Assembly (NCBI GenBank): GCA_014382695.1
Contig: JACNJF010000194.1
Location: 861-64,860 of the forward strand
Direction of reading: 5' to 3'
Source of the DNA: Gammaproteobacteria bacterium
GTDB taxonomy: Bacteria > Pseudomonadota > Gammaproteobacteria > GCA-001735895
DNA: 64,000 nucleotides
The notes below the pieces were generated by a model, which searched no databases, was not told the DNA's origin, and worked only from the letters and a program-made list of their open reading frames with translations. Positions within the stretch are counted from its first letter, which is position 1; every line of letters begins with the position of its first letter. Shown in pieces: positions 7,220 to 44,463 of this stretch. Made by a program: the position numbers and the translations under genes.

Positions 7220-7222
7220 AGG

Positions 7223-7228: not shown

Positions 7229-7253
7229 GACTCAAAAATTGACAGGAAAACGC

Positions 7254-7574: not shown

Positions 7575-7655
7575 AGGTTTTTTTTAAATCCAGGCTGCGC
7601 TGTCTTGCTAACCCGCTTAGCAATGCTGTTCTGACGGTGCCCATCGAAACGGTGT

Positions 7656-8657: not shown

Positions 8658-9034
8658 GTTTTTCTCAATAGCGCTTACGTGCGATAGTTTATTGTTTAAA
8701 ACGACCACTTCAGTGCAAAGCTGACAGTCTATTTTAAGAAAGTCTGGTTATTTAAATTACTCACGCTTCCAGAGGTGCGCCATTTAATTCTGGATGTTAT
8801 AGGAAACAGGGGTTTCAGGCATTATCGCCAGGTGTCTACTATCTACCAATGGCTCTTTCTTCTTTTATCCACGTTAAGCCCTGTAATTTTCAATTTAACA
8901 GTGGTTTAAACTCTAAATGTCTCACTACATGAAGGCGTTCAACAAAATTATTAGCAAGTAGCCACAAGTTATTAGAACAGGAATAAGTCTCATTTATACT
9001 GCATCCATTCATAGTCACCCACCAGGTATACAGT

Positions 9035-11302: not shown

Positions 11303-11352
11303 ACTCAGGCACAGGGATCAGCTTGACAATATAAGTAAATACTAATATTGTT

Positions 11353-11382
11353 ATAGCCTTTTACGGATCTGTAAAAGGCTAT
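11353..11382 (+). promoter_or_regulatory. perfect 11-bp stem-loop covering the SD and start codon of the 11381 gene
   Basis: ATAGCCTTTTA (11353-11363) pairs with TAAAAGGCTAT (11372-11382) around an 8-nt loop. The right arm contains AAAGG and the A and U of the AUG at 11381. Confidence 0.4.
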
Positions 11383-12769: not shown

Positions 12770-12855
12770 ATCAATTCCTGGATCAATAATAGTGTCTGCT
12801 GGTATCCATTCTGAGCAGCGTTTAGAATGGACGGATTGACTGGACTCACTCAATT

Positions 12856-13023
12856 ATGCAATTTCTGATTATACTACTGCTGGTACTCTCTTTTTTTCTG
12901 TATCAAACCTTCCGATTATGGCCCAAGGTCGAATTACGTCGTTATCTGGTGCTGTTATTGATTGTCGATACCTGGCTGAGCATCGTACTGATGTATCTGT
13001 TTTATAGTGCGCTTTTTGATTAA
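12856..13023 (+). CDS. possible small membrane protein (55 aa; below the ORF-track cutoff)
   Basis: Hand translation gives MQFLIILLLVLSFFLYQTFRLWPKVELRRYLVLLLIVDTWLSIVLMYLFYSALFD, which has two hydrophobic helices. There is no convincing SD. Confidence 0.3.
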   Translation: MQFLIILLLVLSFFLYQTFRLWPKVELRRYLVLLLIVDTWLSIVLMYLFYSALFD

Positions 13024-13033
13024 TAGAGCGTTT

Positions 13034-13408
13034 TCAATCAAGATGTAACTCGGAACTTTTGAGAATGGCCTCAATACGGTCTTCAAAATCGGCTCCTATC
13101 GGCTTTGAGATGTAGTTATCGCAGCCGGATTTAATCGCCTTCTGACTATCGGCGCTCATCACCGAAGCGGTTACGGCAATAATCAGTCCGCCATAGCCAC
13201 TCTCACGTAGCTTGCGTGTAGCCTGATGCCCATCCATGACCGGCATATGCATATCCATCAGCACCAGGTCAAAATCGCCCGCAGGCGCTTTTTCGACCGC
13301 TTGCTGACCATTGAACGCCAGCTCAACCTGATGTTTGCGCAGGGTCAGTCTCATGTTAATCATGCGGCTGATGAATTCATCATCCTCGACCAGTAAGATT
13401 TTAGCCAT
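13034..13408 (-). CDS. single-domain response regulator (CheY-like receiver)
   Basis: 'KILLVEDDEF', 'DLVLMDMHMPVMDG', 'IIAVTAS', 'KPI'. Confidence 0.9.
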   Translation of the reverse strand: MAKILLVEDDEFISRMINMRLTLRKHQVELAFNGQQAVEKAPAGDFDLVLMDMHMPVMDGHQATRKLRESGYGGLIIAVTASVMSADSQKAIKSGCDNYISKPIGADFEDRIEAILKSSELHLD

Positions 13409-13413
13409 TCTGT

Positions 13414-15969: not shown

Positions 15970-17609
15970 TCATCATGAATAATAGTTTTGTTACGGCCAC
16001 TTTCCTTGGCCTGATAAAGGGCTTCATCCGCCGCTTCTATCAGCTTATTTTCCTGGCTGAAAGTGGTGCTGCCGGATATCCCTGCGCTAAAACTGCACTT
16101 AAACTCTTCCTTGTCACTCTTGAACGTTAGCTGAGAAAAAGAAACACGCAGTTTTTCAATGATTTCGAAGGCGGCATCCGGACTGGTATTCGGCATGATA
16201 ATACCAAATTCTTCGCCACCGTAACGCCCAATCAGATCGGATTTACGCAGGCGATCTGTCAGCAATTGCGCAAGAGATTTGAGTACTCGGTCGCCAATCG
16301 AATGGCCGAAACGGTCATTAACCTGTTTAAACAGGTCTATATCCAGCATCAGGTAACTGAGTGGTTCATTTTGACGCTGGCTACGAGCCAGTTCGGATTC
16401 AACCCGGCGTTTAAGGGTGATCTGATTGAGTAAGCCGGTCAGGCCATCGTGATACATCAGCTCGCTGAGGGTGCGCGAACGCTCTATTCTCGACTCAATG
16501 GTACTGATCAACTGTTTATCATCGATCGGTTTTACCAGAAAATCATCGCCCTGTTGCAGGGTCTGCAGCTGGATTTTACGGTTGGTTTCGGTCGACAGAA
16601 AAACAATCGGTGTACTGAAGTAGGTTTGATGCTGGCGCAATACGCTGGCGACTTCAAGACCGGTGATGCCTGGAAAATAAAAATCAAGCAACACCAGTTC
16701 CGGCTGAAACAAGGACATTTGCTCAAGGATGTGTTCTGGATCTGCTAATACGCTGGTATGCATACCCGCCTGACGTAATACCAGGCTGTAGTGCTGGGCC
16801 AGTTCTTCGGTATCGTCTACCACCAGCACCCGGTAGGGCTCGCGCCGGACCCGTTGCGTGATCAGATCCAGGTGATTCACCAGTTCGGAAATATCCAGTG
16901 GTTTTTCCAGGTAAGCGGAGCCACCTGCGCGCACCGCGGCGAGCCGGGATTCCCAGTCCTTGCGTTGAGAGATGAACAGAGCAGGTACCGGTTGCTGTAA
17001 AAGCTGGCGTATCTCGGAGGCAAACTGAGTGCCCGCTAATACACCTTCGGGCAAAATGATATCGAGTACCAGTGCATCCGGTATCTGCATTTCTACCATT
17101 TTTCTGGCGTCAGTCGCGGATGAAAATAAATGGGTTCTAAATCCATAATGTTGCAACTGCAGGCACAGATCCTGTCCCTGAAAAGCTTCATCTTCCACGA
17201 TATATATCAGACGCTGGGCCATGATGGATGGGGTAGTCAGCTGTTCCAACGGCTCAATAATCGAGGTGTTTTCAGGCCCGTTCTCAATCAGGGTATGCAA
17301 TGCCTGCAATCCCCGAACGAGATATTTTGTGGTTTTGCTATCCAGCGTATTTTTCTGGTTTATCGCCTCTTTGAGGATTAATTCCAGTTGGCGCGACTGC
17401 TCACTTAACTGAAAAAATCCGAAGGTACCGGCTGATCCACTCAGACTATGGATCTGGCGGAATATGTCATGCAGCATGGTTGCCGGGTCCGAATGATCGA
17501 CCAAACCATTCAGATCCGCAATCATCTGATCTACGCGAATCCCAAGATTAGCGGCAAACTCCAGCCTGAGAGCCGCTAACTGTTGCTGTATGTCATCCTG
17601 TCCGGGCAT
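15963..17609 (-). CDS. Hpt-REC-REC-GGDEF response regulator / diguanylate cyclase
   Basis: N-terminal Hpt motif 'HSLSGSAGTFG'. Two receiver domains ('YIVEDE...LVLDIILP' and 'VLVVDD...LVLLDFYFP'). 'RKSDLIGRYGGEEF' gives an RxxD I-site plus GGEEF. Confidence 0.9.
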   Translation of the reverse strand: MPGQDDIQQQLAALRLEFAANLGIRVDQMIADLNGLVDHSDPATMLHDIFRQIHSLSGSAGTFGFFQLSEQSRQLELILKEAINQKNTLDSKTTKYLVRGLQALHTLIENGPENTSIIEPLEQLTTPSIMAQRLIYIVEDEAFQGQDLCLQLQHYGFRTHLFSSATDARKMVEMQIPDALVLDIILPEGVLAGTQFASEIRQLLQQPVPALFISQRKDWESRLAAVRAGGSAYLEKPLDISELVNHLDLITQRVRREPYRVLVVDDTEELAQHYSLVLRQAGMHTSVLADPEHILEQMSLFQPELVLLDFYFPGITGLEVASVLRQHQTYFSTPIVFLSTETNRKIQLQTLQQGDDFLVKPIDDKQLISTIESRIERSRTLSELMYHDGLTGLLNQITLKRRVESELARSQRQNEPLSYLMLDIDLFKQVNDRFGHSIGDRVLKSLAQLLTDRLRKSDLIGRYGGEEFGIIMPNTSPDAAFEIIEKLRVSFSQLTFKSDKEEFKCSFSAGISGSTTFSQENKLIEAADEALYQAKESGRNKTIIHDEC

Positions 17610-17756
17610 AGGGCTTTTATACTCACGATTAAAAAAATACGATAAATTAGATTAATAAATCAGTATAAACTTGTTTTATAGTTCTGTACTAGGCGTCAGA
17701 TTCATATTAATGTAATGTCCAGTTTTTATGTGGTTTTAAGGTAAGAGAGAGCAGCA

Positions 17757-19847
17757 TTGGAAAGCGCTAATATCCTGATCGTAGAAGATGACCTTTTCGA
17801 GGCAGAGCATCTTAAACTACACCTGCAACAGGCAGGTCATCATATCGTAGATATCCTCAGCTCTGGCGAAGAAGCTATCGCCAGAGTTAACCACAATGGG
17901 ATCGATATCATGTTGGTGGATATCGTACTATCCGGAGAGCTGGATGGTATCGAGGCGGTACAACAAATCCGTAATAAACAGGATATTCCTGTCATTTTTC
18001 TGACCGCACATGTGAATGCTGATTTGCTGTTAAGGGCAGAACGAGCACGACCTTTCGCTTATCTACTCAAGCCCTATCGTCAGCTTGAGCTCGAATTCAT
18101 GATTAACATGAGTCTGGCCCGGAAGCGCGTTGAACAGGAATTGGCAACCCAGAAAGATCTGGCTGAAGCTGAATTACGTCAGGCTCAGGCCATTATTCAT
18201 CATACCAATGAAGGGGTGATGATTACGAACTCAGAAAGAATTATTATGTTCGTAAATCCGGCATTCAGCCGGATCACAGGTTATGAGCTGGATGACTGTA
18301 TCGGACAGAAAACGAGCATTCTGAATTCAGGCCGGCATGATGATGCGTTTTATGCCGATATCTGGTTTTCCATAGAGCATTACGGTCACTGGCAGGGTGA
18401 GCTATGGAACCGGCGTAAAAATGGTGAAATTTATCCGGAATGGTTGACGATAAATCCTATAGCTGAGCGTGATGGCAGTATCCGTCGTTATGTGGGTATC
18501 TTTTCTGATATCTCCAGCATCAAGCAGTCTGAAGCGGAGCTGGAACATCTCGCGCATCACGACCCGCTGACCAATCTGCCCAATCGCCTGTTATTGATGA
18601 CACGATTGCGCTATTCGCTACGCACCGCTTCCCGTCACCGACTGATGTGTGCGGTGCTGTATATCGATCTGGATCGTTTCAAGTTGATCAATGACAGCCT
18701 CGGGCATGAAATCGGGGATGTGGTTTTACAGACGGTTGCACGGCGATTCGAGAATCAGGTGCGCGAAGCCGATATGGTGGCACGTCTGGGCGGTGATGAA
18801 TTCGTGGTACTGCTGGAAGGCATCACTGATCCGGTCGATGCTTCGCTGATTGCACAAAAAATCATTCAGTCTCTGGAGCAACCGGTGATGGTGAATGACC
18901 ATCGTTTTTCGATCAGTTGCTCCATCGGTATTGCGATTTACCCGAAGGATGGGAATACGGTGGAGGACCTGTTACGTGATGCCGATTCGGCCATGTATCA
19001 GGCCAAAAAAATGGGTATGAACAATATCGTTTTTTACACCGAAGATATGACGCGTAAGGCTTATCGACGCATCAAACTCTACAGTGAGTTACGTCAGGCG
19101 CTGGTTAATCAGGAATTCAGACTCCATTATCAACCCCAGATCAATATGAAGTCAGCCAGCTTAATCGGGGTAGAAGCCCTGATCCGCTGGAAGCATCCTG
19201 AGAAAGGATTGATGGGGCCGAAGCATTTTATCCAGGAAGCCGAAGATACCGGACTGATCATTCCGATTGGAATATGGGTGTTGCAACAGGCCTGCCGGGA
19301 TATGAAGTCCTGGCTCGATAAGGGCCTGAAGTTTGGACGCGTATCGGTGAATGTCGCCGGTCCGCAGCTACAACGTGGTGATTTACTAACCGTGGTGAAT
19401 ATGGCGCTGGCAAAAGCGGAATTAAAACCGCAGTATCTGGAACTGGAGCTGACCGAGACCTATGCCATGGAACTGATAGAATCGCATCTACAGACACTCA
19501 ATGACCTCAACACCATGGGCGTCAGCATCGCTATCGACGATTTCGGTACCGGCACATCATCACTGAGTAAGCTGAAAAATCTGCACATCGACAAACTCAA
19601 GATTGATCGCTCATTTGTCACCGATATCCCGATGGATAAAAACGATGAAGCGATTACCCGTGCAATTATCGGGATGAGTCACACGCTGGGTCTGAGTGTG
19701 ATCGCGGAAGGGGTCGAGACGAAATCACAGGAACAGTTTCTGATTCGTGAAAACTGCCTGTTTGCTCAGGGCTTTCTATACAGCAAGCCGCTCAATATTA
19801 TTGAATTTGAAAAATTTGCGGCGAAATACAATCCACTACCGGATTGA
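17757..19847 (+). CDS. REC-PAS-GGDEF-EAL response regulator
   Basis: The TTG start gives 'MESANILIVEDD'. 'IMLVDIVL', a PAS segment, 'READMVARLGGDEF', then EAL 'GVEALIRW', 'DDFGTGTSSL', 'KIDRSFV'. Confidence 0.9.
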   Translation: MESANILIVEDDLFEAEHLKLHLQQAGHHIVDILSSGEEAIARVNHNGIDIMLVDIVLSGELDGIEAVQQIRNKQDIPVIFLTAHVNADLLLRAERARPFAYLLKPYRQLELEFMINMSLARKRVEQELATQKDLAEAELRQAQAIIHHTNEGVMITNSERIIMFVNPAFSRITGYELDDCIGQKTSILNSGRHDDAFYADIWFSIEHYGHWQGELWNRRKNGEIYPEWLTINPIAERDGSIRRYVGIFSDISSIKQSEAELEHLAHHDPLTNLPNRLLLMTRLRYSLRTASRHRLMCAVLYIDLDRFKLINDSLGHEIGDVVLQTVARRFENQVREADMVARLGGDEFVVLLEGITDPVDASLIAQKIIQSLEQPVMVNDHRFSISCSIGIAIYPKDGNTVEDLLRDADSAMYQAKKMGMNNIVFYTEDMTRKAYRRIKLYSELRQALVNQEFRLHYQPQINMKSASLIGVEALIRWKHPEKGLMGPKHFIQEAEDTGLIIPIGIWVLQQACRDMKSWLDKGLKFGRVSVNVAGPQLQRGDLLTVVNMALAKAELKPQYLELELTETYAMELIESHLQTLNDLNTMGVSIAIDDFGTGTSSLSKLKNLHIDKLKIDRSFVTDIPMDKNDEAITRAIIGMSHTLGLSVIAEGVETKSQEQFLIRENCLFAQGFLYSKPLNIIEFEKFAAKYNPLPD

Positions 19848-33215: not shown

Positions 33216-33686
33216 ATGAAACTATCAACAAAAGGTCGTTATGCGGTAACTGCGATGATGGATATTGCACTTCACGAAAAAGTAGGTCCTGTTACTTTGG
33301 CCGATATCTCTCAATGTCAGGGCATTTCACTGTCCTACCTGGAACAGTTGTTTTCTAAATTACGTAATAATGGACTGGTGAAAGGTGTCAGAGGTCCTGG
33401 CGGTGGCTATAGACTAGCCAAACCGGCGCATCAAATCTCTGTTGCCGATATCATCGATTCTGTCGATGAAAAGCTGGATCTGACTAAATGTGGTGGTAAG
33501 GGTAATTGTAACAAGGGTGAAAAGTGTTTAACCCACAAACTCTGGTATGACCTGACCTGTGATTTGCATCGTTATCTGGGCGGTATCAAGCTCGATCAAT
33601 ACGTTAACCGTCCTCAGATCAGTGAATTAGTTAAAAAACAGGATGTACAATACGGCAGATTTTTGAATCGCCGTTCGGCAGCCTGA
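33216..33686 (+). CDS. iscR: Fe-S cluster assembly transcriptional regulator IscR (Rrf2 family)
   Basis: 'MKLSTKGRYAVTAMMDIAL', 'ISLSYLEQLFSKLR', and a Cys cluster 'C..GNCNKGEKCLTH'. Confidence 0.9.
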   Translation: MKLSTKGRYAVTAMMDIALHEKVGPVTLADISQCQGISLSYLEQLFSKLRNNGLVKGVRGPGGGYRLAKPAHQISVADIIDSVDEKLDLTKCGGKGNCNKGEKCLTHKLWYDLTCDLHRYLGGIKLDQYVNRPQISELVKKQDVQYGRFLNRRSAA

Positions 33687-33737
33687 AGGTTGCGATTTAT
33701 AAACCCAATTTAATGATAAAGCTAAAGAGTATTATTG

Positions 33738-34961
33738 ATGAGTAATTTAAGACTTCCAATTTATCTGGATTACAGTGCTACAACGCCAATTGATCAGCGC
33801 GTCGCTGCTAAAATGGCAGAATATCTGACTATAGAGGGTCAGTTTGGTAACCCTGCCTCGCGCAGTCATGCGTTTGGCTGGAAAGCAGAAGAAGCGGTAG
33901 AGCTTGCCCGTAAGCAGGTTGCTGAGCTGGTGAATGCCGATCCACGTGAAATTATCTGGACCAGTGGAGCCACCGAGTCTGATAATCTGGCGATTAAGGG
34001 TGCTGCACACTTTTATAAGAAAAAAGGTAACCATATCATTACTGTTAAAACCGAGCATAAAGCGGTTTTAGATACCACCAGACAACTGGAACGAGAAGGT
34101 TTCGAAGTTACTTATCTGACCCCGGAAGACAATGGCTTGCTGGATCTGGAAAAGCTCAGGGCTGCAATGCGTGATAGCACGATCATTGTTTCTGTGATGC
34201 ATGTTAATAATGAAATCGGTGTGATTCAGGATATCGCCACTATTGGTGAAATATGCCGCGAAAAAGGGATTATTTTTCATGTCGATGCAGCGCAGTCACC
34301 CGGCAAGGTGACGATCGATCTGGCTGAATTGAAGGTTGATCTGATGTCGTTTTCCGGTCATAAGATTTATGGACCAAAAGGTATTGGCGCCCTGTATGTG
34401 AGGCGCAAGCCACGCATCCGTCTGGAAGCCCAGATGCATGGTGGTGGACATGAACGAGGATTGCGCTCTGGAACACTGGCTACCCATCAAATCGTCGGTA
34501 TGGGTGAAGCGTTCCGAATCGCCAAGGAAGAGATGGCGACCGAAAATGAGCGTATCCGTATGCTACGTGATCGGCTGTATAACGGCCTTAACGATATGGA
34601 AGAGGTTTACCTGAATGGTGATCTGGAGCATCGTATTGCCGGCAATCTGAATATCAGTTTTAATTTTGTGGAAGGCGAGTCGCTGATTATGGCTTTACGT
34701 GATCTTGCGGTTTCATCAGGCTCTGCCTGTACTTCTGCCAGTCTGGAGCCATCCTATGTGCTGAGAGCATTAGGACGTAACGATGAGCTGGCGCATAGTT
34801 CCATCCGCTTTACGCTGGGACGCTATACGACGGTTGAAGAAGTGGATTACACCATTGAGCTGGTGAGAAAGGCAGTGACCAAGCTGCGAGAGCTTTCACC
34901 CCTGTGGGATATGTATAAGGCAGGTATAGATTTAAACTCCGTTGAATGGGTTGCCCATTAA
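33738..34961 (+). CDS. iscS: cysteine desulfurase IscS
   Basis: '[11 protein letters not shown]', 'SGATESDN', '[12 protein letters not shown]', 'SSGSACTS', and the C-terminal 'WDMYK.GIDL..VEW'. Confidence 0.95.
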
Positions 34962-34985
34962 CGCAAAACTATTGAGGTAATCGAA

Positions 34986-35363
34986 ATGGCATATAGTGAA
35001 AAAGTACTGGATCATTATGAGAATCCGCGCAACGTCGGCGTAATCGATGAAGATGACAGTGTAGGCACCGGTATGGTTGGTGCTCCTGCCTGTGGTGATG
35101 TGATGAAGCTACAGATCAAGGTTAGTAAAGATGGCATTATTGAAGATGCTAAATTTAAAACCTATGGCTGTGGTTCAGCGATTGCATCCAGCTCGCTGGT
35201 AACCGAATGGGTAAAGGGTAAAACCCTGGATCAGGCGGCAGAAATCAAAAATACCCATATTGCTGAAGAGCTGGCCTTACCACCGGTTAAGATCCATTGC
35301 TCGGTACTGGCAGAAGATGCGATTGCTGCTGCAATCTCCAACTACCGACAGAAACATCAGTAA
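34986..35363 (+). CDS. iscU: Fe-S cluster scaffold IscU
   Basis: 'MAYSEKVLDHYENPRNVG', 'GAPACGDVMKLQ', 'KTYGCGSAIASSS', 'LPPVKIHCSVLAEDA'. Confidence 0.95.
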   Translation: MAYSEKVLDHYENPRNVGVIDEDDSVGTGMVGAPACGDVMKLQIKVSKDGIIEDAKFKTYGCGSAIASSSLVTEWVKGKTLDQAAEIKNTHIAEELALPPVKIHCSVLAEDAIAAAISNYRQKHQ

Positions 35364-35374
35364 ATGTGAGACAG

Positions 35375-35403
35375 AAAAAGCCTGCGTAAGCAGGCTTTTT
35401 TTT
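35375..35403 (+). terminator. rho-independent terminator immediately after iscU
   Basis: AAAAAGCCTGC, loop GTAA, GCAGGCTTTTT, then a T-run of 8. Confidence 0.85.
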
Positions 35404-35414
35404 GAGCTGAATCC

Positions 35415-35606
35415 ATGCTAACGAACAACTTGCCGAACTGGGCCAGATGGATTGCGATGGATGAAGATGGTTGCTGGTGGTGTTATGAAGCCGAACCGCA
35501 GCAGCATGATCGTGGGTGGTATGAGAATGAAGTGGGGCGAACTCAGCGTTTAAAATTAATACGCCAGACAGACTGGCAACATAGTCTGCAAAAAGTGCCT
35601 GGCTAA
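35415..35606 (+). CDS. hypothetical Trp-rich small protein (63 aa)
   Basis: The ORF begins just after the terminator. It has 7 Trp in 63 aa ('WARWIAMDEDGCWWCYE'). No family recognised. Confidence 0.4.
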   Translation: MLTNNLPNWARWIAMDEDGCWWCYEAEPQQHDRGWYENEVGRTQRLKLIRQTDWQHSLQKVPG

Positions 35607-35611: not shown

Positions 35612-36166
35612 TTAGAGTGTAGTGTTTCCTGCGGGCCCGATATTCATTCCTATCGACAGTCGATAGTGCTCGGATCTGTTTTCAGTGACACGATGGGGAG
35701 TCGCGGGGTCAAAAAAGATGAAATTCCCGCTAACTGGTTTGATGACGATGCTCTGTTCTGGTGTTTCGAGTACCAGGTCACCCGAATTTTCAGGCACCGA
35801 CAGATAGATAACCCCGGAAATTAATTCGTCAAAATCATCATGTCGATGCAGTGTTGTGACATGCCCGGGTTGCATCAGGTTGAACCAGTAGCCGATCTTT
35901 AACTCATCTGTGCACATGCCAAGTAGTTCTGCACAGTAGCCCAGGCTTTCTTCGAGTAGCCTTTCTAAATCGGTATTTTGAATGGTTTTCAGATAGATAT
36001 TTTCAAACCGTTGATGAAAATAATGGGTCTTTTTGAGGTTATTAGCATTCTGCTCCAGCTGTTGCTGCAGGTAGCGATCGATAGCACTAAGCTGGGAGGC
36101 GCTTAACTGGCTGATTCGCCGGATATAGGGGGTTTGGCTAAATAATCTCGGTGTGACGAGTGACAC
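35612..36166 (-). CDS. putative 2OG-Fe(II) oxygenase-fold protein (TIGR02466-like)
   Basis: 'LHRHDDFD...SGVIYLSVPENSGDLVL...FFDPATPHRVTEN' supplies an HxD...H facial triad in a double-stranded beta-helix context. Confidence 0.55.
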   Translation of the reverse strand: MSLVTPRLFSQTPYIRRISQLSASQLSAIDRYLQQQLEQNANNLKKTHYFHQRFENIYLKTIQNTDLERLLEESLGYCAELLGMCTDELKIGYWFNLMQPGHVTTLHRHDDFDELISGVIYLSVPENSGDLVLETPEQSIVIKPVSGNFIFFDPATPHRVTENRSEHYRLSIGMNIGPAGNTTL

Positions 36167-36239: not shown

Positions 36240-36431
36240 TTACTTCCAGTTTTCGAAGTTATCCGTTGATTTTTCCTGACCATCTTCGTAACCAGCAGAA
36301 TAGGCATCGTTAACCTGTTGCTCTTCTCTTTCCGGATGACCCAGGTAACCACCCTGCCAGCCGATTATGTATTGTTCCTGTAAACCCATTTCTTCCATTT
36401 TAGTCGTTGCATCACGATAAGCTTGATCCAT
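36240..36431 (-). CDS. hypothetical acidic small protein (63 aa)
   Basis: The ORF has 'gaggagaatgtt' (GAGGAG) just upstream of the ATG. No family recognised. Confidence 0.45.
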   Translation of the reverse strand: MDQAYRDATTKMEEMGLQEQYIIGWQGGYLGHPEREEQQVNDAYSAGYEDGQEKSTDNFENWK

Positions 36432-36597
36432 AACATTCTCCTCAAATTCAGACGATAAAAAAAGATTATTTGGCGCTGTAGCGCACTCGTAAGAATTGCC
36501 ACAGGCCGAAAAATGTGAGTATTTTACTAGAAAAAACGCAGTTTATAATATCTCTATTGGGAGTATGCGTGGATTTACGTCCCATCAGGGATATTCG

Positions 36598-36623
36598 AAT
36601 AATAATGAATAATGATTATTATT
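36598..36623. repeat. AT-only inverted repeat upstream of the Sel1 gene
   Basis: AATAATAAT (36598-36606), an 8-nt spacer, then ATTATTATT (36615-36623), about 35 nt upstream of ATG 36657. Confidence 0.5.
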
Positions 36624-36656
36624 ATCAACAGTTTATTTATCAGGAGTATATATTTG

Positions 36657-37082
36657 ATGACTACCGATGCTGATATGAATTTTATTAGTGGTATGTCGGC
36701 CTTTGAATCTAAAGAGTTCATCCGCGCCGTACAGTTTTTACTACCCTTTGCCGAAAAAGGTGACCCGGATGCCCAGCACCGTGTTGCTATCATGTACCAA
36801 AATGGTCTGGGCATGGTGAAAAAGGAAGCACTGGCTTTCAAGTGGATGAAAGCGGCCGCTGACCAGGGCCATGCGGTTGCACAGCATGGACTCGGGTTTA
36901 TGTATATGGATGGCGATTGTGTTGAAAAGGATGGCGCCAAAGCGGTTGAATGGTTTAGCAAGGCTGCCGATCAGGGGCTGGTCGGCTCGATGACGACACT
37001 TGCCATGATGTATGAATCTGGTGATGGGATTGAGAAAGACCCAGAGAAAGCAAAAGAACTTTACGCGAAGGCGGGGTTTTAA
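36657..37082 (+). CDS. Sel1-repeat (TPR-like) protein
   Basis: Three to four Sel1 repeats ('GDPDAQHRVAIMYQNGLGMVKKEALAFKWMKAAADQGHAVAQHGLGFMYMDG..V.KD..KAVEWFSKAADQG'). An AGGAG SD precedes ATG 36657; the ORF is open from 36612. Confidence 0.8.
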   Translation: MTTDADMNFISGMSAFESKEFIRAVQFLLPFAEKGDPDAQHRVAIMYQNGLGMVKKEALAFKWMKAAADQGHAVAQHGLGFMYMDGDCVEKDGAKAVEWFSKAADQGLVGSMTTLAMMYESGDGIEKDPEKAKELYAKAGF

Positions 37083-38125
37083 TGCGTCCTGCGTTTTTGT
37101 CCAAAGTTCTGGAAGAAGAACTACTGGGAACGCTTAAAGGTCATCACACACCGGTGATGGTATGGGGCCCGCCAGGGGTTGGCAAATCACAGATCGTGCT
37201 GCAGATTGGGCAAACCCATAAGCTGCCGGTGATCGATATCCGGCTATCTCAGATGGAACCGAGCGATTTGCGCGGTATCCCGTTTAAACAGGGCAGTAAG
37301 GTTGAATGGGCGGTACCTTCGATGTTGCCCGATGCTAAAACCCATGGCAGTTCAGGCATTCTGTTTCTGGATGAAATAAATTCGGCAGCCCCTTCGGTGT
37401 CAGCAGCGGCCTATCAGCTTATCCTGGATCGCCGACTGGGGAACTATGAAGTACCGCAGGGCTGGGCCATCTTTGCTGCCGGCAACCGACAGGGCGATCG
37501 TGGAGTGACCTATGCGATGCCTGCACCACTGGCGAATCGCTTCTCACATTATGAAATCGATCTGCATCTGGATGACTGGGTGGCCTGGGCCTATAAAAAC
37601 GGTATCGATGAACGCATCATCGGTTTTTTACGTTTTCGCCCGGAGTTACTGTTTGATTTTGATCCGGCGCACAACCCGGTCGCTTTTCCATCACCGCGTT
37701 CCTGGGAGTTTGCTCATCGCGCATTACAAAAATTTATCGATTACCCGAATCTGTTGCTGGGTTCGTTACAGGCCTGTGTTGGTCCTGCGGCAGGAATCGA
37801 ATGTCATGCGTTTATTGAAAGTCTGGATCAAATGCCGGATCTGGATAAGATTATCAATGGTGAAGACATCAAGGCACCGGATGAAATCGACCTGCAATAT
37901 GCAGTGGCTTCTGCACTGGTAGGCCGTGCGATTCGTGCTCAGTCGAGCGCGCAGTCGGCGACTATCTATGGCAATATCCTTAACTATGCGGGTCGTTTTC
38001 CGCAGCGTGAAATGGGTGTAATGCTGGTATCGGATATGCATCGGGCGATTGGTAATGATCTGTTTGAACTGACCGAATTTGCCAGCTGGGCCGATTCTAT
38101 TGCCGATCTGATTCTGTACGACTGA
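37082..38125 (+). CDS. MoxR/AAA_5-type AAA+ ATPase
   Basis: Walker A 'GPPGVGKS', Walker B 'ILFLDEIN', 'AAGNRQGDRG', 'PLANRF'. Its start overlaps the Sel1 stop (TAATG). Confidence 0.85.
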   Translation: MRPAFLSKVLEEELLGTLKGHHTPVMVWGPPGVGKSQIVLQIGQTHKLPVIDIRLSQMEPSDLRGIPFKQGSKVEWAVPSMLPDAKTHGSSGILFLDEINSAAPSVSAAAYQLILDRRLGNYEVPQGWAIFAAGNRQGDRGVTYAMPAPLANRFSHYEIDLHLDDWVAWAYKNGIDERIIGFLRFRPELLFDFDPAHNPVAFPSPRSWEFAHRALQKFIDYPNLLLGSLQACVGPAAGIECHAFIESLDQMPDLDKIINGEDIKAPDEIDLQYAVASALVGRAIRAQSSAQSATIYGNILNYAGRFPQREMGVMLVSDMHRAIGNDLFELTEFASWADSIADLILYD

Positions 38126-38134
38126 TGACGGTTC

Positions 38135-39505
38135 GTGGATAGTTCACTCGAAGCAATTGAAAACAAATTGAGTGCAGCGCGCACTCGATTGATCCTGGAT
38201 AAACCATTTTTGGGGGCGCTGGTGTTGCGTCTGCCGTTGCAGGCGGCCGATCCGAGCTGGTGTGCAACCACCGGTACCGATGCCCGAAAGTTCTATTACA
38301 ATCCGGCCTATATTCAGGAGCTGCGCGCCGATGAAACCCAGTTTGTGCTGGCACACGAAGCCCTGCATTGCGCGCTGTCGCATTTTGCACGGCGCGGTCA
38401 TCGGGTTAAACACCGCTGGGATATCGCCTGTGATTATGCGATTAATCCGCTGCTGTTAGATGAAGGGCTGAAGCCGCCACCCGGCTCTCTGATGCTGCGT
38501 GAGTACCGTGGGATGACGGCGGAGGAAATCTATCCGATGATTCAGGATAACGATATGTCCGAGTCGCTGGATCAGCATCTGTACGATAAACAGGAGCAAA
38601 CCGAAGGCGGGCAGGATAAACAGCAAAATCCACTCGATCAGAAGGATTCAAAAAGTCAGTCTGGTGGTGAAGGTCAGGTGCAACGGCAGGATCAGTCGAA
38701 TAAACCTGCACAGGGCAATCAGCCTGACGAACCGGCGGATAGCGAAAAAAATCCGCAGCAGGATGAAAGCGCGGGCCTGCCGAGACAGAGCAACGATCAG
38801 TTACCCGGAAAAGCCAGCGGTGCCGCCAGTAAAGACCTGCAAAGCAGTGCACCGCAGCCGTTAACCGAATCAGAAAAATCAGATCTGCATGTGCAGTGGC
38901 AGCAGCGACTGGCTGGTTCGGCACAACAGGCGCAGCAGGCCGGTAAGCTGGGTGAAGGCATCGCGCGCATGATCGATTTTTTTCTGCAGCCGACCTTACC
39001 CTGGCGTGTATTACTGGCACGCCATATGAACAGTATTTCGCGCGACGATTACAGCTACACGCGGCCTTCCAGCCGGCGTGGCGATCCGGCGATCTATCCC
39101 AGCCTGCGTAGCCCGCAGATGAACGTGGTGGTCGCTGTCGATGTCAGTGGTTCGATCGACAAGGATGAGCTGGATGAGTTTGTGGCGGAAGTCGATTCAC
39201 TCAAATCCCAGGTTCGGGCGCGTGTCACTTTTCTGACCTGTGATTCAAAGATAACCGGTGATAGTCCTCAGATTTTTGAAGCCTGGGAGTATTGCCGCCT
39301 GCCGGAACGTATTATGGGTGGAGGCAGCACCGATTTTAACCCGGTGTTTGAGTGGGTCGAACGGCATGATGTGAAGCCGGATCTGCTGGTTTACTTTACC
39401 GACGCGGATGGACGATTCCCTCGCTGTCAGGCGCCTTATCCGGTGATCTGGCTGGTGAAAGGCCGTAAGGCCGTTCCCTGGGGCCAGAGAATTCAATTAA
39501 ATTAA
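38135..39505 (+). CDS. fusion of a putative metallopeptidase-like domain (HExxH), a disordered linker and a vWA domain (DUF2201-type)
   Basis: The N-terminus 'LILDKPFLGALVLRL...TDARKFYYNP...FVLAHEALHCALSHF...WDIACDYAINP' carries HEALH at 38354-38368. A Q/D/S/P-rich linker of about 110 aa follows. The C-terminal vWA has the MIDAS 'DVSGS' at 39140-39154. Confidence 0.8.
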   Translation: MDSSLEAIENKLSAARTRLILDKPFLGALVLRLPLQAADPSWCATTGTDARKFYYNPAYIQELRADETQFVLAHEALHCALSHFARRGHRVKHRWDIACDYAINPLLLDEGLKPPPGSLMLREYRGMTAEEIYPMIQDNDMSESLDQHLYDKQEQTEGGQDKQQNPLDQKDSKSQSGGEGQVQRQDQSNKPAQGNQPDEPADSEKNPQQDESAGLPRQSNDQLPGKASGAASKDLQSSAPQPLTESEKSDLHVQWQQRLAGSAQQAQQAGKLGEGIARMIDFFLQPTLPWRVLLARHMNSISRDDYSYTRPSSRRGDPAIYPSLRSPQMNVVVAVDVSGSIDKDELDEFVAEVDSLKSQVRARVTFLTCDSKITGDSPQIFEAWEYCRLPERIMGGGSTDFNPVFEWVERHDVKPDLLVYFTDADGRFPRCQAPYPVIWLVKGRKAVPWGQRIQLN

Positions 39506-39513
39506 GCGGTCTT

Positions 39514-40632
39514 ATGCAATTATCCAATGAAGATAACCTGCGCCTGAATGTGTTGCTGGCGCAGGACCTGAAAGCGGTTCGCATCGATGAATCGAAAATG
39601 ATCGTGTATGCCTTATCCAGTCGCGGGGATGCCAAAATCCAGCTCAATCCGACTGGCAAGGATGAAAAATATATCCGCCTGGTAAAAGAGCTGCTGTCGA
39701 ACAAGATTATGGGTTCTCCTGGCGGTTATCCGGTGTATATCAAGCGCTGGACACGCATGGGGCAGGAACGTCAGCAGGAAAGCCTGGCGCAATTGCTGTT
39801 ACTGGGTGAGCCGGAAGCGGTGGTGGCGGTGGTGCATGCTCCAACCCTGAGTACCGATATCGCACGCCATGCGTGGTGGGCATTCCCGTCCTCTGAAAAT
39901 GCGCGCCGGTTACTGGAAAAAAAATCCATCGTGGATTCCGATCTGGCGCGAGAGCTGGTCGAGTTTTTACTCGAGTTCCTGCCGTTTGAGATAGAGCACA
40001 GAGACATGATCGATTCGGTTCGATTATGCCTGCAAAATGACCTGTTAACCGCTGCTGAAATCGACGATCTGTGGAAACGGGCGCGGCGTAAACAGAGTCT
40101 GTATGTCGGGTTTTTACACAGCCAGCCGGATGCTCTGCCGGATCAGGCCGGTGCACATCCGCTGTATAAACCGTTGCAGCAGTCTTTGCAGCCACTGGTC
40201 GAGCAGGGCAATGTGTACGCGATCCAGCTATTGCGCTACCTGTCGGAGCCGGGGCAGGGCTTTCTCAGAACCATCATCCGGGTGCTTGAAAAAGCCGCCA
40301 GCCAGGATACGATCGTTTCACTGTTTCAGGCGCTGTCAAACTATAACCGCCTGTTACCTCTGGCATCGGTGAAGCAGCGCGATATCAAGAATGCGGAGCA
40401 GCTGGTCACGGTATGGATAAGTGGCAAGCAGGATGAGCAACTGGTGAGCTGTCTTGAGGCCTGTGCACAATATAGCGATCAGATTCGAGCCATGCTGGTC
40501 ATATCTCAGCTGGATGAAGTGACGCTGTTTCCGATTTTTGGCCTGACCGATGCACTGGGCACGGTGATGCGCAAAAAACTTGAGCCGGTCACCGGCCCTT
40601 TATTGCAACATATCCGGCAGCTGTTACATTAG
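39514..40632 (+). CDS. hypothetical protein (372 aa), last gene of the Sel1/AAA/vWA cassette
   Basis: It starts 8 nt after the previous stop. It is predominantly helical and leucine-rich by eye, with no TM helix and no catalytic motif I can name. Confidence 0.8.
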   Translation: MQLSNEDNLRLNVLLAQDLKAVRIDESKMIVYALSSRGDAKIQLNPTGKDEKYIRLVKELLSNKIMGSPGGYPVYIKRWTRMGQERQQESLAQLLLLGEPEAVVAVVHAPTLSTDIARHAWWAFPSSENARRLLEKKSIVDSDLARELVEFLLEFLPFEIEHRDMIDSVRLCLQNDLLTAAEIDDLWKRARRKQSLYVGFLHSQPDALPDQAGAHPLYKPLQQSLQPLVEQGNVYAIQLLRYLSEPGQGFLRTIIRVLEKAASQDTIVSLFQALSNYNRLLPLASVKQRDIKNAEQLVTVWISGKQDEQLVSCLEACAQYSDQIRAMLVISQLDEVTLFPIFGLTDALGTVMRKKLEPVTGPLLQHIRQLLH

Positions 40633-40731
40633 GCGAAGTTCGTGGAGTGCAACTATCGGTTGCGCGATGTTTTCTATATAATGATTTCCTTATATTAAAT
40701 TTAAGGCCTCCAACTGGAGCGGGTGTATGCG

Positions 40732-42132
40732 ATGAAGTACCTTCCGATATTTTATGAAATCACCGATAAGCCCTGTGTAGTGATCGGAGGCGGGGGGATT
40801 GCCGCACGTAAAGCCGACCTGTTACATCAGGCGGGTGCCAGAGTCAGTGTGATTTCCCCCGAGCTGGGCGATGAAATGTCGCGCTTTCAACAACAGGGTA
40901 AGATTAGCTGGCAGCAACGTAATTTTGAGGCAGGTGATCTGACCGATTATTTTCTGGTGATCGCCGCAACCAGTGACAGGCGGGTCAATGAACAGGCTGC
41001 GGCTGAAGCACTGGTGCTGAAGATTCCCTGTAATGTGGTGGATAACCCAGAGCTATGCAGTTTCATCATGCCTTCGATTATCAACCGGGATCCAGTACAG
41101 ATTGCGGTATCTACCGGTGGCGCATCACCGGTGCTAGCACGTCTGATTCGGACCAATCTGGAAAGCTGTACGCCATCGGCCTATGGCAAGCTGGCGAAGC
41201 TGGTCGAAAAGTATCGTGACCGGGTCAAAAGTACCTTCCCACGCGTGGTCGAGCGTCGTAAATTCTGGGAGTCTATTCTGGAAGGGCCGGTGGCTGAACA
41301 TATCTTTGCCGGTCGTAACGACGATGCCCGACAGTTGATTGAACAACTGATCGACAAGGCCGATTCCAACCCGTCCTATAAAGGTGAAGTGTTTCTGGTA
41401 GGTGCCGGTCCGGGAGACCCCGACCTGCTCACCTTTCGCGCCTTACGCCTGATGCAAAAGGCCGATGTCATCGTCTACGATCGACTGGTTTCGCAACCGA
41501 TCATGGATCTGGTGCGGCGTGACGCGGAGCGCATCTACGCCGGCAAGGAACGCTCCCATCATGCGATACCCCAGGAAAACATCAATCAGTTGCTGGTGCG
41601 GTTGGCCAAAGAAGGCAAACGTGTACTACGCCTGAAAGGTGGCGATAACTTCATTTTCGGACGCGGTGGTGAAGAAATATCTGAATTGATCGATGAAGAT
41701 ATCCCGTTTCAGGTCGTGCCCGGTATAACTGCCGCTTCCGGTTGTACAACCTACGCAGGTATTCCGTTAACCCACCGTGATTATGCGCAGGCCTGTATCT
41801 TTGTGACCGGCCACCTGAAGGATGGCTCCAGTGATCTGAACTGGGATATGTTGTCGCATGCGAATCAAACGGTGGTTTTTTACATGGGGCTGGTGAATGT
41901 TCAGTCGATCTGCGATTCACTCAAACAACATGGCCGAGCCGCCTCTACACCGGCTGCGTTGATCGAAAAAGGTACAACGCCGGAACAACGGGTTTTTATC
42001 GGTGATCTGGATACCTTACCGGGGCTGGTGAACCAGAATAATGTCAAGGCCCCGACCCTGATTGTGGTCGGTGAAGTGGTGGAGTTGCATAAGAAACTGC
42101 ACTGGTTCAAGCCGGGCGAAGAGATTAAATAG
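40732..42132 (+). CDS. cysG: siroheme synthase (multifunctional CysG)
   Basis: 'LPIFYEI..K.CVVIGGGGIAARKA' aligns with the E. coli CysG N-terminus. The methyltransferase half has 'VFLVGAGPGDPDLLT', 'RLKGGD..IFGRGGEE'. Confidence 0.9.
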   Translation: MKYLPIFYEITDKPCVVIGGGGIAARKADLLHQAGARVSVISPELGDEMSRFQQQGKISWQQRNFEAGDLTDYFLVIAATSDRRVNEQAAAEALVLKIPCNVVDNPELCSFIMPSIINRDPVQIAVSTGGASPVLARLIRTNLESCTPSAYGKLAKLVEKYRDRVKSTFPRVVERRKFWESILEGPVAEHIFAGRNDDARQLIEQLIDKADSNPSYKGEVFLVGAGPGDPDLLTFRALRLMQKADVIVYDRLVSQPIMDLVRRDAERIYAGKERSHHAIPQENINQLLVRLAKEGKRVLRLKGGDNFIFGRGGEEISELIDEDIPFQVVPGITAASGCTTYAGIPLTHRDYAQACIFVTGHLKDGSSDLNWDMLSHANQTVVFYMGLVNVQSICDSLKQHGRAASTPAALIEKGTTPEQRVFIGDLDTLPGLVNQNNVKAPTLIVVGEVVELHKKLHWFKPGEEIK

Positions 42133-42257
42133 CCCCGTAGAGTGTTCCTGTAGGACTATGATGGCAATCATGCTTCTTCCTGAGGTGTATTACCTGGCGT
42201 TGCCAATTACATTGAAAACTAGTTTGTACCATCTCAGTGCTGATTTCCGAGTATCCG

Positions 42258-42812
42258 ATGCTTAAAAGCTATTTTAAAAGGATGTGTGGTCAGGGCGATA
42301 AATGCCGTGAAACTTATACCCCTGTCTGGTTACTGTGGTCAGTTGTGGGGGGATCGCTTGCCATACTGATCATCTCCTTTACCCATCAGTGGATACCGAT
42401 TTCGCATGCCAGCAGTCTGTTTTTGATCGGCTCTTTTGGTGCCTCTTCGGTTCTCATTTTCGGCACACCGAATGTACCCTATGCCCAGCCCAGGAACCTG
42501 CTCGGAGGGCATCTGATCTCTGCCCTGATCGGGGTGACGATCGCTCAATATGTGATTTTACCGATTGAATTTCAGGCGGCGCTGGTGGTTTCGCTGGCGA
42601 TACTGTTTATGCTGCTCACCAATACGGTGCATCCACCCGGCGGGGCAACCGGGCTGATCGCCGTAATCGGACATGATGGAGTGCATGAAATGGGTTACCA
42701 CTTCGTGTTGCAACCAGTACTGTCAGGCCTGTTGATCATGCTGGTGATTGCGTTGCTGTTCAATAATCTGAGTTCTGATTGTGAACGTCATTATCCCCGG
42801 CACTGGTGGTAG
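42258..42812 (+). CDS. HPP-family membrane protein
   Basis: Four or five TM helices and 'HPPGGAT' (the HPP motif). Confidence 0.75.
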   Translation: MLKSYFKRMCGQGDKCRETYTPVWLLWSVVGGSLAILIISFTHQWIPISHASSLFLIGSFGASSVLIFGTPNVPYAQPRNLLGGHLISALIGVTIAQYVILPIEFQAALVVSLAILFMLLTNTVHPPGGATGLIAVIGHDGVHEMGYHFVLQPVLSGLLIMLVIALLFNNLSSDCERHYPRHWW

Positions 42813-42822
42813 GACCGCGTAT

Positions 42823-42855
42823 TAATTGCTAAGTATCCGGACATATTAGCAATTA
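42823..42855. promoter_or_regulatory. perfect 10-bp inverted repeat overlapping the candidate SulP promoter
   Basis: TAATTGCTAA (42823-42832), a 13-nt spacer, then TTAGCAATTA (42846-42855). The right arm overlaps a -35-like TTAGCA, and TAGAAT lies 18 nt downstream (42870-42875). Confidence 0.5.
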
Positions 42856-42906
42856 CTTATATATTCGGGTAGAATCCGCGCCTTTTAATCTGTGCAAGGC
42901 GAATCT

Positions 42907-44463
42907 ATGTTCCAACTCACCTGTCCTGGTAAACAATGTGTAAAAAATGATGTGTTATCCGGTCTGACCGTCGCGTTGGCGCTGGTTCCGGAAGCAGTCG
43001 CTTTTGCCTTTGTCGCGGGTGTCGAACCTCTGGTAGGCCTGTACGGCGCCTTTATGATGGGAATCATCACCGCTTTTATCGGCGGTCGTCCCGGTATGAT
43101 TTCTGGAGCCACCGGTGCGATGGCGGTGGTGATGGTGTCGCTGGTTGCTCAGCATGGGGTCGAGTATCTGTTTGCCGCGATTATCGTCACCGGTTTGATC
43201 CAGATGAGTGCCGGTGTGCTGCGCCTGGGCAAGTTTATCCGTCTGGTGCCTTTCCCGGTAATGCTGGGTTTCGTGAATGGTCTCGCCATCGTTATTTTTC
43301 TGGCCCAGTTACAGCAGTTCAAGGTGATTTCAGCCGATGGTGGGCTGGAGTGGATGAGCGGACAGTCATTGTTGATTATGCTGGGTCTGATTGCGCTGAC
43401 CATGGCGATCATCCACTTTTTACCTCGTTTTACGGTTGCTGTTCCAGCTTCTTTGGCTGCCATTATTACAGTGACTCTGCTGGTCATCGGACTGGACCTG
43501 GATAGCCGCTCGGTGGTTGATGTATTGCGTGATATGACGGGCGATATGCAGGCCACGATTGCGGGTGGTCTACCTTCGTTTCATCTACCCGTTGTGCCGT
43601 TTAACTGGGAAACACTGCGGATCATTCTGCCTTACAGCATTATTCTGGCTGGTGTTGGCCTGATTGAGTCGCTGCTGACGCTGAATCTGGTGGATGATCT
43701 GACCGAAACCCGTGGGCGTGGTAATCAGGAGTGTGTCGGGCAGGGAATCGGTAATACCGTCAATGGCCTGTTTGGCGGAATGGGCGGCTGTGCCATGATC
43801 GGACAGTCCATGATCAATATCAATTCGGGAGGCAAGGGCCGCCTGTCAGGCATCAGCGCGGCGCTGTTTCTGCTGGGATTTATTCTGTTCGCTTCCGGCC
43901 TGATCGAAATCATCCCGGTCGCAGCGCTGGTCGGGGTGATGTTCATGGTGGTGCTTGGCACCTTTGAATGGGCCACCTTTCGCATGATCGGTAAAGTGCC
44001 GTTGGCGGATATTCTGATTACCATTCTGGTTGCGGCTGTCACCGTTATATCGGATCTGGCGATCGCCGTTATCGTCGGCGTCATCGTGTCGGCACTGGTA
44101 TTTGCCTGGGAGCATGCCAAGCACATGAACGCGAAGTCTTTTATCGATGAAAATGGCAGTAAAATCTATGAGCTAAACGGGCCGCTGTTCTTTGGTTCGG
44201 TGCATGCCTTTCATGAACTGTTTAATCCACGCGAAGACCCGGATGATGTAATCATCGATTTTTATAATTCACGGGTTGCCGATCATTCCGGCATCGAAGC
44301 CATCGATAGTCTGGCTGAGCGTTATCAGCGTAACGGTAAAACACTGCATCTCAAGCATCTGAGCGAAGAATGCAAGCTGCTGCTACATACGGCCGGAAAC
44401 CTGGTAGAAGTGAATGTAATGGAAGATCCGGTATACCATGTGGCGGATGATCTGCTGGATTAG
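42907..44463 (+). CDS. SulP-family anion (sulfate) permease with a C-terminal STAS domain
   Basis: '[20 protein letters not shown]', multiple TM helices, and a C-terminal STAS-like '[12 protein letters not shown]...'. AAGG lies 7 nt upstream of ATG 42907. Confidence 0.9.

Follow-up and report, generated by a model that had tools for sequence, protein, structure and literature searches.

A compact gene cassette in a 64,000-nt window of contig JACNJF010000194.1, assigned to the Gammaproteobacteria, encodes a Sel1-repeat protein, an AAA+ ATPase, a protein in which a zincin-like DUF2201_N domain is joined to a von Willebrand factor A (vWA) domain, and a 372-aa protein that, by its sequence, belongs to what NCBI records name the DsrS family. 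The cassette is genuine, and sulfur-oxidising bacteria have conserved it widely. The reading put forward here, which is given about an even chance of being right, is that it represents a conserved dsrS neighbourhood of sulfur-oxidising Gammaproteobacteria, in which an AAA+/vWA remodeller works with the DsrS and Sel1 proteins as adaptors on a siroheme-dependent step of the Dsr pathway. The family of each component is known, as are pairs of MoxR-class ATPases and vWA proteins as a kind of chaperone system; what appears to be new is the ancient and widespread coupling of DsrS to such a pair, together with the metabolic anchoring of a pair homologous to gp24/gp25 of phage N4. In the literature searched, no paper pairs dsrS with MoxR and none pairs it with a vWA protein, and the link seems to be unreported there.

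Organization of the cassette

All coordinates refer to the window, which is the whole stretch of DNA that was analysed, and genes were taken from a program-made list of open reading frames (ORFs). The Sel1 gene, listed on the forward strand as ORF 36612..37082, most likely starts at ATG 36657 and would thus encode 141 aa with three repeats (36657..37082), since the gene calls of relatives are of 141 aa and the sequence further upstream is not conserved as coding. It is followed on the same strand by the gene for the AAA+ ATPase (37082..38125; 347 aa, AAA_5 / midasin–MoxR class), that for the DUF2201_N–linker–vWA (DUF2201) protein (38135..39505; 456 aa), the DsrS-family gene (39514..40632; 372 aa, 42.2 kDa; MBC8212655.1) and, outside the cassette proper, the siroheme synthase gene cysG (40723..42132; NCBIfam PRK10637, 5.7e-193). 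An earlier note on this DNA had described tight packing of these genes, and the junctions are as it gave them, with the stop of Sel1 overlapping the start of AAA in TAATG, then spacers of 9 nt and 8 nt, and finally 90 nt to cysG. The Walker A (GPPGVGKS) and Walker B (ILFLDEIN) motifs of the ATPase are present, HEALH and DVSGS occupy residues 74-78 and 336-340 of the vWA protein, respectively, and the low-complexity linker, claimed to be of about 110 aa, was confirmed at about 105 aa (Q, D, S-rich). The Pfam families predicted in advance were those obtained, namely Sel1, AAA_5 (7e-9), DUF2201_N (2.7e-43) and DUF2201 (1.1e-23), and no Pfam family was matched by the fourth, 372-aa protein. All sequence-level statements on the cassette were therefore borne out and the observation is confirmed, whereas the interpretation offered with it is partly supported, as will be seen below. 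The arrangement is well beyond chance and was found again in dozens of genomes.

The fourth protein belongs to the DsrS family

The 372-aa protein had been regarded as an orphan with no recognisable relatives, a description that fails. A word-indexed sequence search returned more than 3,700 relatives; an exhaustive HMMER scan resolved the family into at least 404 clusters at 50% identity, with nearly all members about 370 aa long and matched end to end; and a profile scan based on a ten-sequence alignment found a relative encoded in 489 species-representative genomes. Among the best 80 of these 489, from which the loci for the analysis of synteny were drawn and which include no Chromatiaceae locus, the listed records are a Gammaproteobacterium or an unclassified Pseudomonadota/Proteobacteria bacterium, and the lower-rank taxa, where given, are all sulfur-oxidiser lineages (Thiohalobacter, Thiohalophilus, Thiothrix, Candidatus Parabeggiatoa, Ectothiorhodospiraceae and Thioalkalispiraceae). 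With a distant family member as query, the search reached NCBI records called “sulfur reduction protein DsrS” and “DsrS”. The window protein aligns over its full length, at 47% identity, with RUM92587.1 (“sulfur reduction protein DsrS”, E 1e-123) and with MBI3561492.1 (“DsrS”, E 3e-114), and a third entry, MEN8129515.1, named DsrS by the Prokaryotic Genome Annotation Pipeline (PGAP), lies in a cassette of identical order, that is, 143-aa protein, AAA, DUF2201, DsrS and CysG. The suggestion that the fourth protein be compared with DsrS was thus correct, and the “hypothetical protein” annotation of MBC8212655.1 is corrected to DsrS family. Ten distant representatives of the family are recorded as hypothetical proteins or without a name. 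No NCBIfam model matched any of 36 family members, which means that the DsrS naming is not based on a hidden Markov model in that library. It had also been held that membership of a characterised family would speak against a new machine; the family found is a named one that has been studied genetically, and the objection applies in part.

The structure of DsrS predicted from a 36-sequence alignment (predicted local distance difference test score, pLDDT, 93.2; predicted template modelling score, pTM, 0.87) is modelled with confidence as a three-stranded N-terminal β-sheet followed by an α-solenoid. Only Trp, Ala, Leu, Gly and Arg occur among the invariant residues, and no Cys or His is conserved. 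An α-solenoid of this kind, without conserved Cys or His, would suit a scaffold or adaptor and not an enzyme or cofactor binder.

In Allochromatium vinosum, dsrS is the last gene of the operon dsrABEFHCMKLJOPNRS, with its own promoter and a function described in the literature as unresolved; dsrN, for siroheme amidation, precedes dsrR and dsrS. The A. vinosum protein (Alvin_1265) has a mass of about 41 kDa. It shares with the window protein the name, by way of the NCBI records of 47%-identical relatives, a similar size and an origin in sulfur-oxidising Gammaproteobacteria, but the window gene follows an AAA+/vWA pair, precedes cysG and does not lie in a dsr operon. This absence is not disqualifying, because Thioalkalivibrio, Sulfurifustis and Sulfuricaulis also have their dsrS apart from the dsr cluster. 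In the last of these genera, dsrS (SCL_0781) and a dsrC (SCL_0785) are separated by four locus tags, a spacing that agrees with the order DsrC–CysG–AAA–vWA–DsrS seen in two of the loci compared below (L085 and L096; loci carry an L number where they have to be told apart).

Conservation and history of the unit

Synteny was examined by tblastn of the window proteins onto approximately 90 non-redundant loci, and the presence of genes was counted in the 67 loci with at least 4.5 kb of sequence upstream of DsrS. The vWA gene adjoins DsrS in 53 of the 67, frequently with an overlapping or tight junction, the AAA gene is present in 54, and a Sel1 gene lies upstream of DsrS in 53. The claim that the four genes form a conserved unit is borne out by these counts. 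The four-gene set is not the ancestral unit. At 31-36% DsrS identity, the AAA–DUF2201–DsrS triad is intact without Sel1 in five loci (L085, L086, L088, L089 and L096), and in a sixth, L097, it is kept and preceded by a 142-aa gene. When context was placed on a neighbour-joining tree of DsrS, the ATPase–vWA pair was present in the deepest branches, from which Sel1 is missing. The same tree shows the pair to be absent beside DsrS in at least five separate lineages; in some of these, Sel1 directly adjoins DsrS, as in Thiohalobacter thiocyanaticus (L044), and others (Thiothrix, L094) have only DsrS–CysG. Given a pair that reaches the deepest branches and a triad that is intact at 31-36% identity without Sel1, the ancestral unit, as read from these sequences, is the AAA–DUF2201–DsrS triad, to which Sel1 and a 63-aa gene (described below) were added later.

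The AAA+ ATPase

The ATPase had been described as MoxR-type, which holds in the broad sense of AAA_5 and not in the narrow one. It has only one AAA+ module, in which both Walker motifs are intact, and its gene adjoins a vWA gene, as in the MoxR family sensu Snider and Houry. However, AAA_3, the model for MoxR proper, scored 19.6 bits where 27 are required, and bpMoxR 17.9 with the same cut-off. In a profile search of the PDB, the nearest structures were the AAA modules of midasin (5e-14), followed remotely by CbbQ (1.2e-3) and NorQ (4e-3), so that the nearest solved relative is midasin and not RavA, CbbQ or NorQ. Walker A, Walker B (LFLDE) and most of the rest of the sequence are at least 95% conserved across 66 orthologues. 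On sequence grounds, the protein is best described as a member of the AAA_5 / N4 gp24 family that is MoxR-like broadly.

Several characterised systems share parts of this design. In NorQ/NorD, NorQ binds to the vWA domain of NorD and remodels the linker of this partner, so that metal can be inserted and the metalloenzyme matures (PMC13036017); the principles by which CbbQ/CbbO, RavA/ViaA and midasin operate are related. NorQ/NorD, CbbQ/CbbO and RavA/ViaA resemble the window pair in that a single-module AAA+ protein is combined with a partner built of an N-terminal domain, a linker and a C-terminal vWA domain with a metal ion-dependent adhesion site (MIDAS), and in that the genes lie near those of the pathway served. 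They differ in that the window ATPase is related only remotely to NorQ and CbbQ and is nearer to midasin, that the N-terminal domain of its partner, unlike those of NorD, CbbO and ViaA, is the zincin-like DUF2201_N, and that the cassette has two extra dedicated partners, DsrS and Sel1. Midasin (Rea1/Mdn1), which is nearest in its AAA modules, likewise couples an AAA ring to a MIDAS domain that grips the client; it is, however, a eukaryotic protein of approximately 4,700-4,900 residues that acts in ribosome biogenesis with ring and MIDAS on one polypeptide, whereas in the cassette the ATPase and the MIDAS reside on separate proteins of 347 and 456 aa, respectively. The earlier view of an AAA+/vWA pair that has acquired additional partners and matches none of those characterised is supported.

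The DUF2201/vWA protein

Both Pfam models of the vWA protein are exceeded by a wide margin, DUF2201_N with 148.9 bits (cut-off 23.2) and DUF2201 with 84.1 bits (cut-off 26.4). Conservation is unequal between the two ends. The MIDAS motif DxSGS (D336, S338, S340) is invariant in 72 of 72 sequences, and the further MIDAS ligands T399 and D423 are invariant as well and are also kept in phage homologues. The HExxH motif, by comparison, has H74 in 60 and E75 in 59 of 69 sequences, so that it is degenerate in about 14% of orthologues, with replacement in at least four lineages by KQALH (a clade of seven genomes), QQALH, RAALY or HDALH while the gene, the MIDAS and the synteny were retained. Non-conservation of either motif had been named in advance as a sign of degenerate domains, and it applies in part to HExxH and not to the MIDAS. 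The variable, acidic/Q-rich linker measures 45 to 132 aa in orthologues of full length. A structure model of the protein from its single sequence was unusable (pLDDT 35.9), and PDB sequence and profile searches with the protein sequence returned nothing significant.

The composition of the N-terminal domain invites the view that the system is a regulated protease, in which an active zincin metallopeptidase would be served by an AAA+ ring that unfolds or presents substrates, with DsrS and Sel1 as substrate adaptors, and the levels of Dsr or other sulfur-metabolism proteins would be set after translation. HExxH is accompanied by H83, D100 and E130, all kept in most orthologues and in phage homologues; Pfam labels DUF2201_N a putative metallopeptidase; the PDB profile search gave a marginal match (E 0.08) to the minimal gluzincin selecase MJ1213 around the motif, and a faint SprT-like match was seen in L097. 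Post-transcriptional control of dsr expression by DsrS, which is said to have been proposed, would also fit controlled turnover. Against this stand the substitutions of the catalytic residues, His and Glu, which arose independently in four or more lineages, the lack of any documented peptidase activity of DUF2201_N in the papers found to mention it, and the behaviour of characterised MoxR-class ATPases, which remodel and do not degrade their targets (PMC13036017, PMC9976466 and PMC3893208). A protease is accordingly considered rather unlikely. A chaperone is preferred because the catalytic HExxH was repeatedly lost while gene and MIDAS were retained, which argues that proteolysis is not the essential activity, although it could still occur in most lineages.

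The KQALH clade (L066, L071, L076, L077, L082, L083 and L084; vWA gene at approximately 6770-7999), which keeps the whole cassette and the MIDAS, looks like a natural “peptidase-dead” experiment; the sequences that carry six of its seven loci are 0.87-2.14 Mb long, and for five of the six the range is 1.85-2.14 Mb. An Fe-S site formed by the conserved cysteines C43, C79, C99 and C369 was considered and is not claimed, as these are only partly common to the phage homologues.

A homologous gene pair in phages

Both proteins of the pair have full-length homologues in phages, the ATPase matching phrog_1297 at 1.2e-92 and the vWA protein phrog_1314 at 1.3e-83. By tblastn, homologues of the vWA protein were found in 526 phage records, including those of jumbo and N4-like phages. 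In Achromobacter phage JWAlpha the two homologous genes have been equated by the annotators with N4 gp24 and gp25, and in an E. coli jumbo phage the two are adjacent. The N4-like phages have 14 core genes, which include N4 genes 24 and 25; the former is given there as “unknown” and the latter as “vWFA domain” (PMC4193335). The phage pair thus resembles that of the cassette in full-length homology of both proteins, in adjacent or near-adjacent genes and in conservation of HExxH and MIDAS, but identity is merely 25-33% and a DsrS-like partner is found neither by sequence nor by fold. In phrog_1314 and in many phage records, including those of RefSeq, DUF2201 proteins are called “HNH endonuclease” or “homing endonuclease” (for example NC_023556.1 15695-16855 and NC_071039.1 238083-239249), a label that looks spurious and spreading.

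The abundance of phage homologues, N4-like core genes among them, bears on a further alternative, namely that the cassette is a prophage remnant or has evolved from a gp24/gp25-like phage pair into a system of anti-phage defence or conflict. MoxR–vWA cores do occur in proposed conflict systems, and the ternary systems of Kaur et al. 2020 (PMC7159879) share with the cassette a MoxR-class ATPase, a vWA protein and additional partners; weak, sub-threshold matches to IteA/IetA, DolB and bpMoxR were also recorded. In the cassette, however, bpMoxR is below threshold, no effector or β-propeller accompanies the pair, and the chromosomal context is stable and metabolic. The best PADLOC match was DolB at 2e-4 (18.6 bits), confined to the P-loop region, with the vWA and DsrS proteins unmatched; all NCBIfam defence matches fell far below threshold; and neither an effector nor an integrase or mobile-element gene is present. 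The same housekeeping flanks recur across many genomes, the DsrS tree indicates deep conservation of the triad with few losses, and the GC content is unremarkable. For DsrS itself, Foldseek found no viral counterpart of the fold, the PHROG phage families gave no match, and a plasmid sequence search gave none either. The defence role that had been entertained at the outset is not supported, given this noise-level PADLOC result, the absence of DsrS from the plasmids and phages searched and the stable flanks, and a conflict system or prophage remnant is regarded as extremely improbable.

Siroheme synthase and the sulfur context

A connection with siroheme and sulfur metabolism, proposed originally from the adjacent siroheme synthase gene, gained support from the comparison of loci. 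Of 74 loci, 30 have cysG no more than 1.5 kb downstream of DsrS, and in L085 and L096 the gene is divergent and upstream of the AAA gene, so that the linkage, for which a check had been proposed, is recurrent but patchy and not obligatory. A dsrC homologue is found within the locus in 13 cases. On the 3.56-Mb sequence of L096, the triad stands among genes for SoxZ, SoxA, thioredoxins, DsrC, a divergent CysG, a cysteine desulfurase-like protein, a rhodanese and a DsrE-like protein, and the deepest-branching triads are flanked by dsrC, cysG, sox, rhodanese and thioredoxin genes. In the clade of the window, iscRSU is another nearby element of this context.

The neighbourhood of cysG also raises the question of whether the cassette encodes a chelatase-like tetrapyrrole machine, in which the AAA+ and vWA proteins would act as do CobS/CobT or BchI/BchD, with DsrS holding the substrate, on the sirohydrochlorin or siroheme of CysG. 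The three-subunit logic beside cysG is that of CobN/S/T and BchH/I/D, where AAA+ and vWA subunits are joined by a third one and are likewise encoded beside a tetrapyrrole biosynthesis gene; the ATPase also matches phrog_249, “porphyrin biosynthesis”, at 2.4e-9; and the siroheme amidation gene dsrN precedes dsrR and dsrS in A. vinosum. However, a CobN/BchH homologue is found neither in the cassette nor in its flanks, DsrS is small, with a generic solenoid fold and without conserved His or Cys for metal or porphyrin, and the phage homologues occur without tetrapyrrole genes. Moreover, no extra chelatase is needed, because CysG is full length by Pfam, including its N-terminal dehydrogenase/ferrochelatase domains. 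Such a machine is judged very unlikely.

The 90-nt spacer between DsrS and cysG contains a weak hairpin (40647-40665) and the string TATATAAT, which was read by eye, and cysG may have its own promoter. In loci without cysG, a gene for an approximately 180-aa protein lies directly downstream of DsrS (e.g. L043 9294-9836 and L092 7061-7600).

Proposed mechanism

By analogy with NorQ/NorD, CbbQ/CbbO and midasin, a hexamer of the ATPase would grip the vWA domain of its partner and pull on the linker, while a client would be held by the MIDAS and the N-terminal domain. DsrS, joined in later lineages by the Sel1 protein, would act as the adaptor that chooses this client. The client would most likely be a siroheme-dependent step of Dsr-type sulfur oxidation, for which the candidates are the maturation or cofactor loading of reverse dissimilatory sulfite reductase (reverse DsrAB), which is favoured, or the control of its activity. 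What speaks for a Dsr client is that the solenoid protein is DsrS, that cysG, dsrC and sox genes are its neighbours, and that dsrS comes after dsrN and dsrR in A. vinosum. The sequences show the gene identities, the deep synteny, the conserved motifs, the name and fold of DsrS, the often translationally coupled position of its gene, and the surrounding sulfur, siroheme and Fe-S genes; we infer by analogy that the proteins form a physical complex, what their client is, and that they work as a chaperone and not as a protease. In a narrower version, which is possible but doubtful and is advanced tentatively, the triad would be devoted to assembling reverse dissimilatory sulfite reductase, as an ATP-driven machine that loads or exchanges the siro(haem)amide–[4Fe-4S] cofactor, with DsrS as the client adaptor.

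Several points weigh against an AAA+/vWA remodeller devoted to the Dsr pathway. The identity of DsrS rests on second-hand record names and not on the sequence of A. vinosum DsrS. Among the large ORFs of the 64-kb window there is no dsrAB or other dsr gene, so that the cassette is not the end of a dsr operon and the link to Dsr rests on naming, literature and distant loci; adjacency to cysG is patchy. The AAA–vWA pair is missing beside DsrS in the five or more lineages noted above, which implies that DsrS can function without an adjacent pair, and the phage homologues cannot have a Dsr client, which implies that the AAA/vWA pair itself is a generic machine. Grimm and colleagues reportedly found in 2011 that deletion of dsrS in A. 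vinosum merely slowed sulfur oxidation, and they are said to have favoured post-transcriptional control over enzyme maturation. A related alternative, in which DsrS would be an RNA-binding α-solenoid that controls the translation or stability of dsr mRNA and the AAA+/vWA pair would remodel the ribonucleoprotein, is considered quite improbable.

The Sel1 protein, the divergent gene and the leader

The Sel1 protein matches the Pfam Sel1 model with E 2.2e-31 to 3.9e-31 (107.6 bits against a cut-off of 30.7) through three repeats, and its N-terminus, MTTDADMNF..., is acidic and not hydrophobic. It is proposed to be an adaptor. Divergent from its gene, on the reverse strand, lies the gene for an acidic 63-aa protein (36240..36431; 7.4 kDa, pI 4.2), for which no Pfam or PHROG match was obtained. 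By tblastn, this gene has the same position in 51 of the 67 loci, at 48-95% identity, and the annotation of other assemblies likewise includes it with a length of 63 aa; the protein is probably part of the same functional unit as the cassette.

The divergent promoter region between the 63-aa gene and the Sel1 gene contains an inverted repeat, AATATCTCTATTGGGA / TCCCATCAGGGATATT (36547-36562 / 36580-36595), both arms of which are kept in six relatives (L005-L010) with a loop of 17 to approximately 100 nt. Rfam gave no match to this repeat, to the cassette or to its leader. The repeat is a candidate operator or hairpin of the 5' untranslated region. The AT-only inverted repeat that had been reported ahead of the cassette, AATAATAAT / ATTATTATT (36598-36606 / 36615-36623), was found by a repeat search but, unlike its neighbour at 36547-36595, is not conserved in relatives. 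It overlaps matches to sigma-70-like hexamers, the number of which is no higher than in shuffled sequence; promoter and terminator scans gave counts near those of shuffled sequence and were uninformative.

Wider neighbourhood

Beyond the divergent gene, as seen from the cassette, and also on the reverse strand lies a gene of the 2OG-Fe(II) oxygenase family (35612..36166; 184 aa; Pfam 2OG-FeII_Oxy_5, 3.4e-12), which has the same position in close relatives, while another subfamily is found at the upstream flank of more distant loci; it is part of the extended conserved neighbourhood and not of the core cassette. Further away on that side, a short conserved ORF of 63 aa (35415-35606) comes after iscR–iscS–iscU (33216-35606 in all), with no iscA, hscBA or fdx after them. 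iscRSU are also near the cassette in L003, L007, L009, L016, L019 and L057. In one lineage (L003 1569-5723 and L004 1-1416), a restriction-modification insertion with two DNA methylases, BpuJI_N/NOV_C proteins and an HTH gene lies between iscU and the 63-aa gene, a site that tolerates insertions while the cassette stays intact. The wider upstream neighbourhood of many other loci (e.g. L055 1257-7251, L066 288-5118 and L069 390-7288) contains genes for dsrC-like, 2OG-Fe(II) oxygenase and DUF6866 proteins, an approximately 190-aa protein, a glycosyltransferase-family-3-like protein and a GNAT-like ORF, the last of these having been read by eye and being unconfirmed. Downstream of cysG in the window, an HPP-family membrane protein and a SulP/STAS transporter are encoded (42237-44463), in an order kept in the close relatives L005, L007 and L016. 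Elsewhere in the window (2191-19847) there is a dense cluster of cyclic di-GMP and two-component signalling genes, which encodes a 1446-aa SBP–GAF–PAS–GGDEF–EAL protein, a CHASE–PAS histidine kinase, and Hpt–REC–GGDEF and REC–PAS–GGDEF–EAL proteins.

Significance

The approximately 90 loci compared here link DsrS ancestrally and tightly to an AAA+/vWA pair, often together with siroheme synthase, and thereby lead to a testable hypothesis of maturation or control of the Dsr pathway by a MoxR-style machine. If the triad does serve as an assembly machine, no maturation chaperone would have been known before for reverse dissimilatory sulfite reductase and no function for DsrS, and its elucidation would provide the first mechanistic handle on the widespread phage gp24/gp25 pair.

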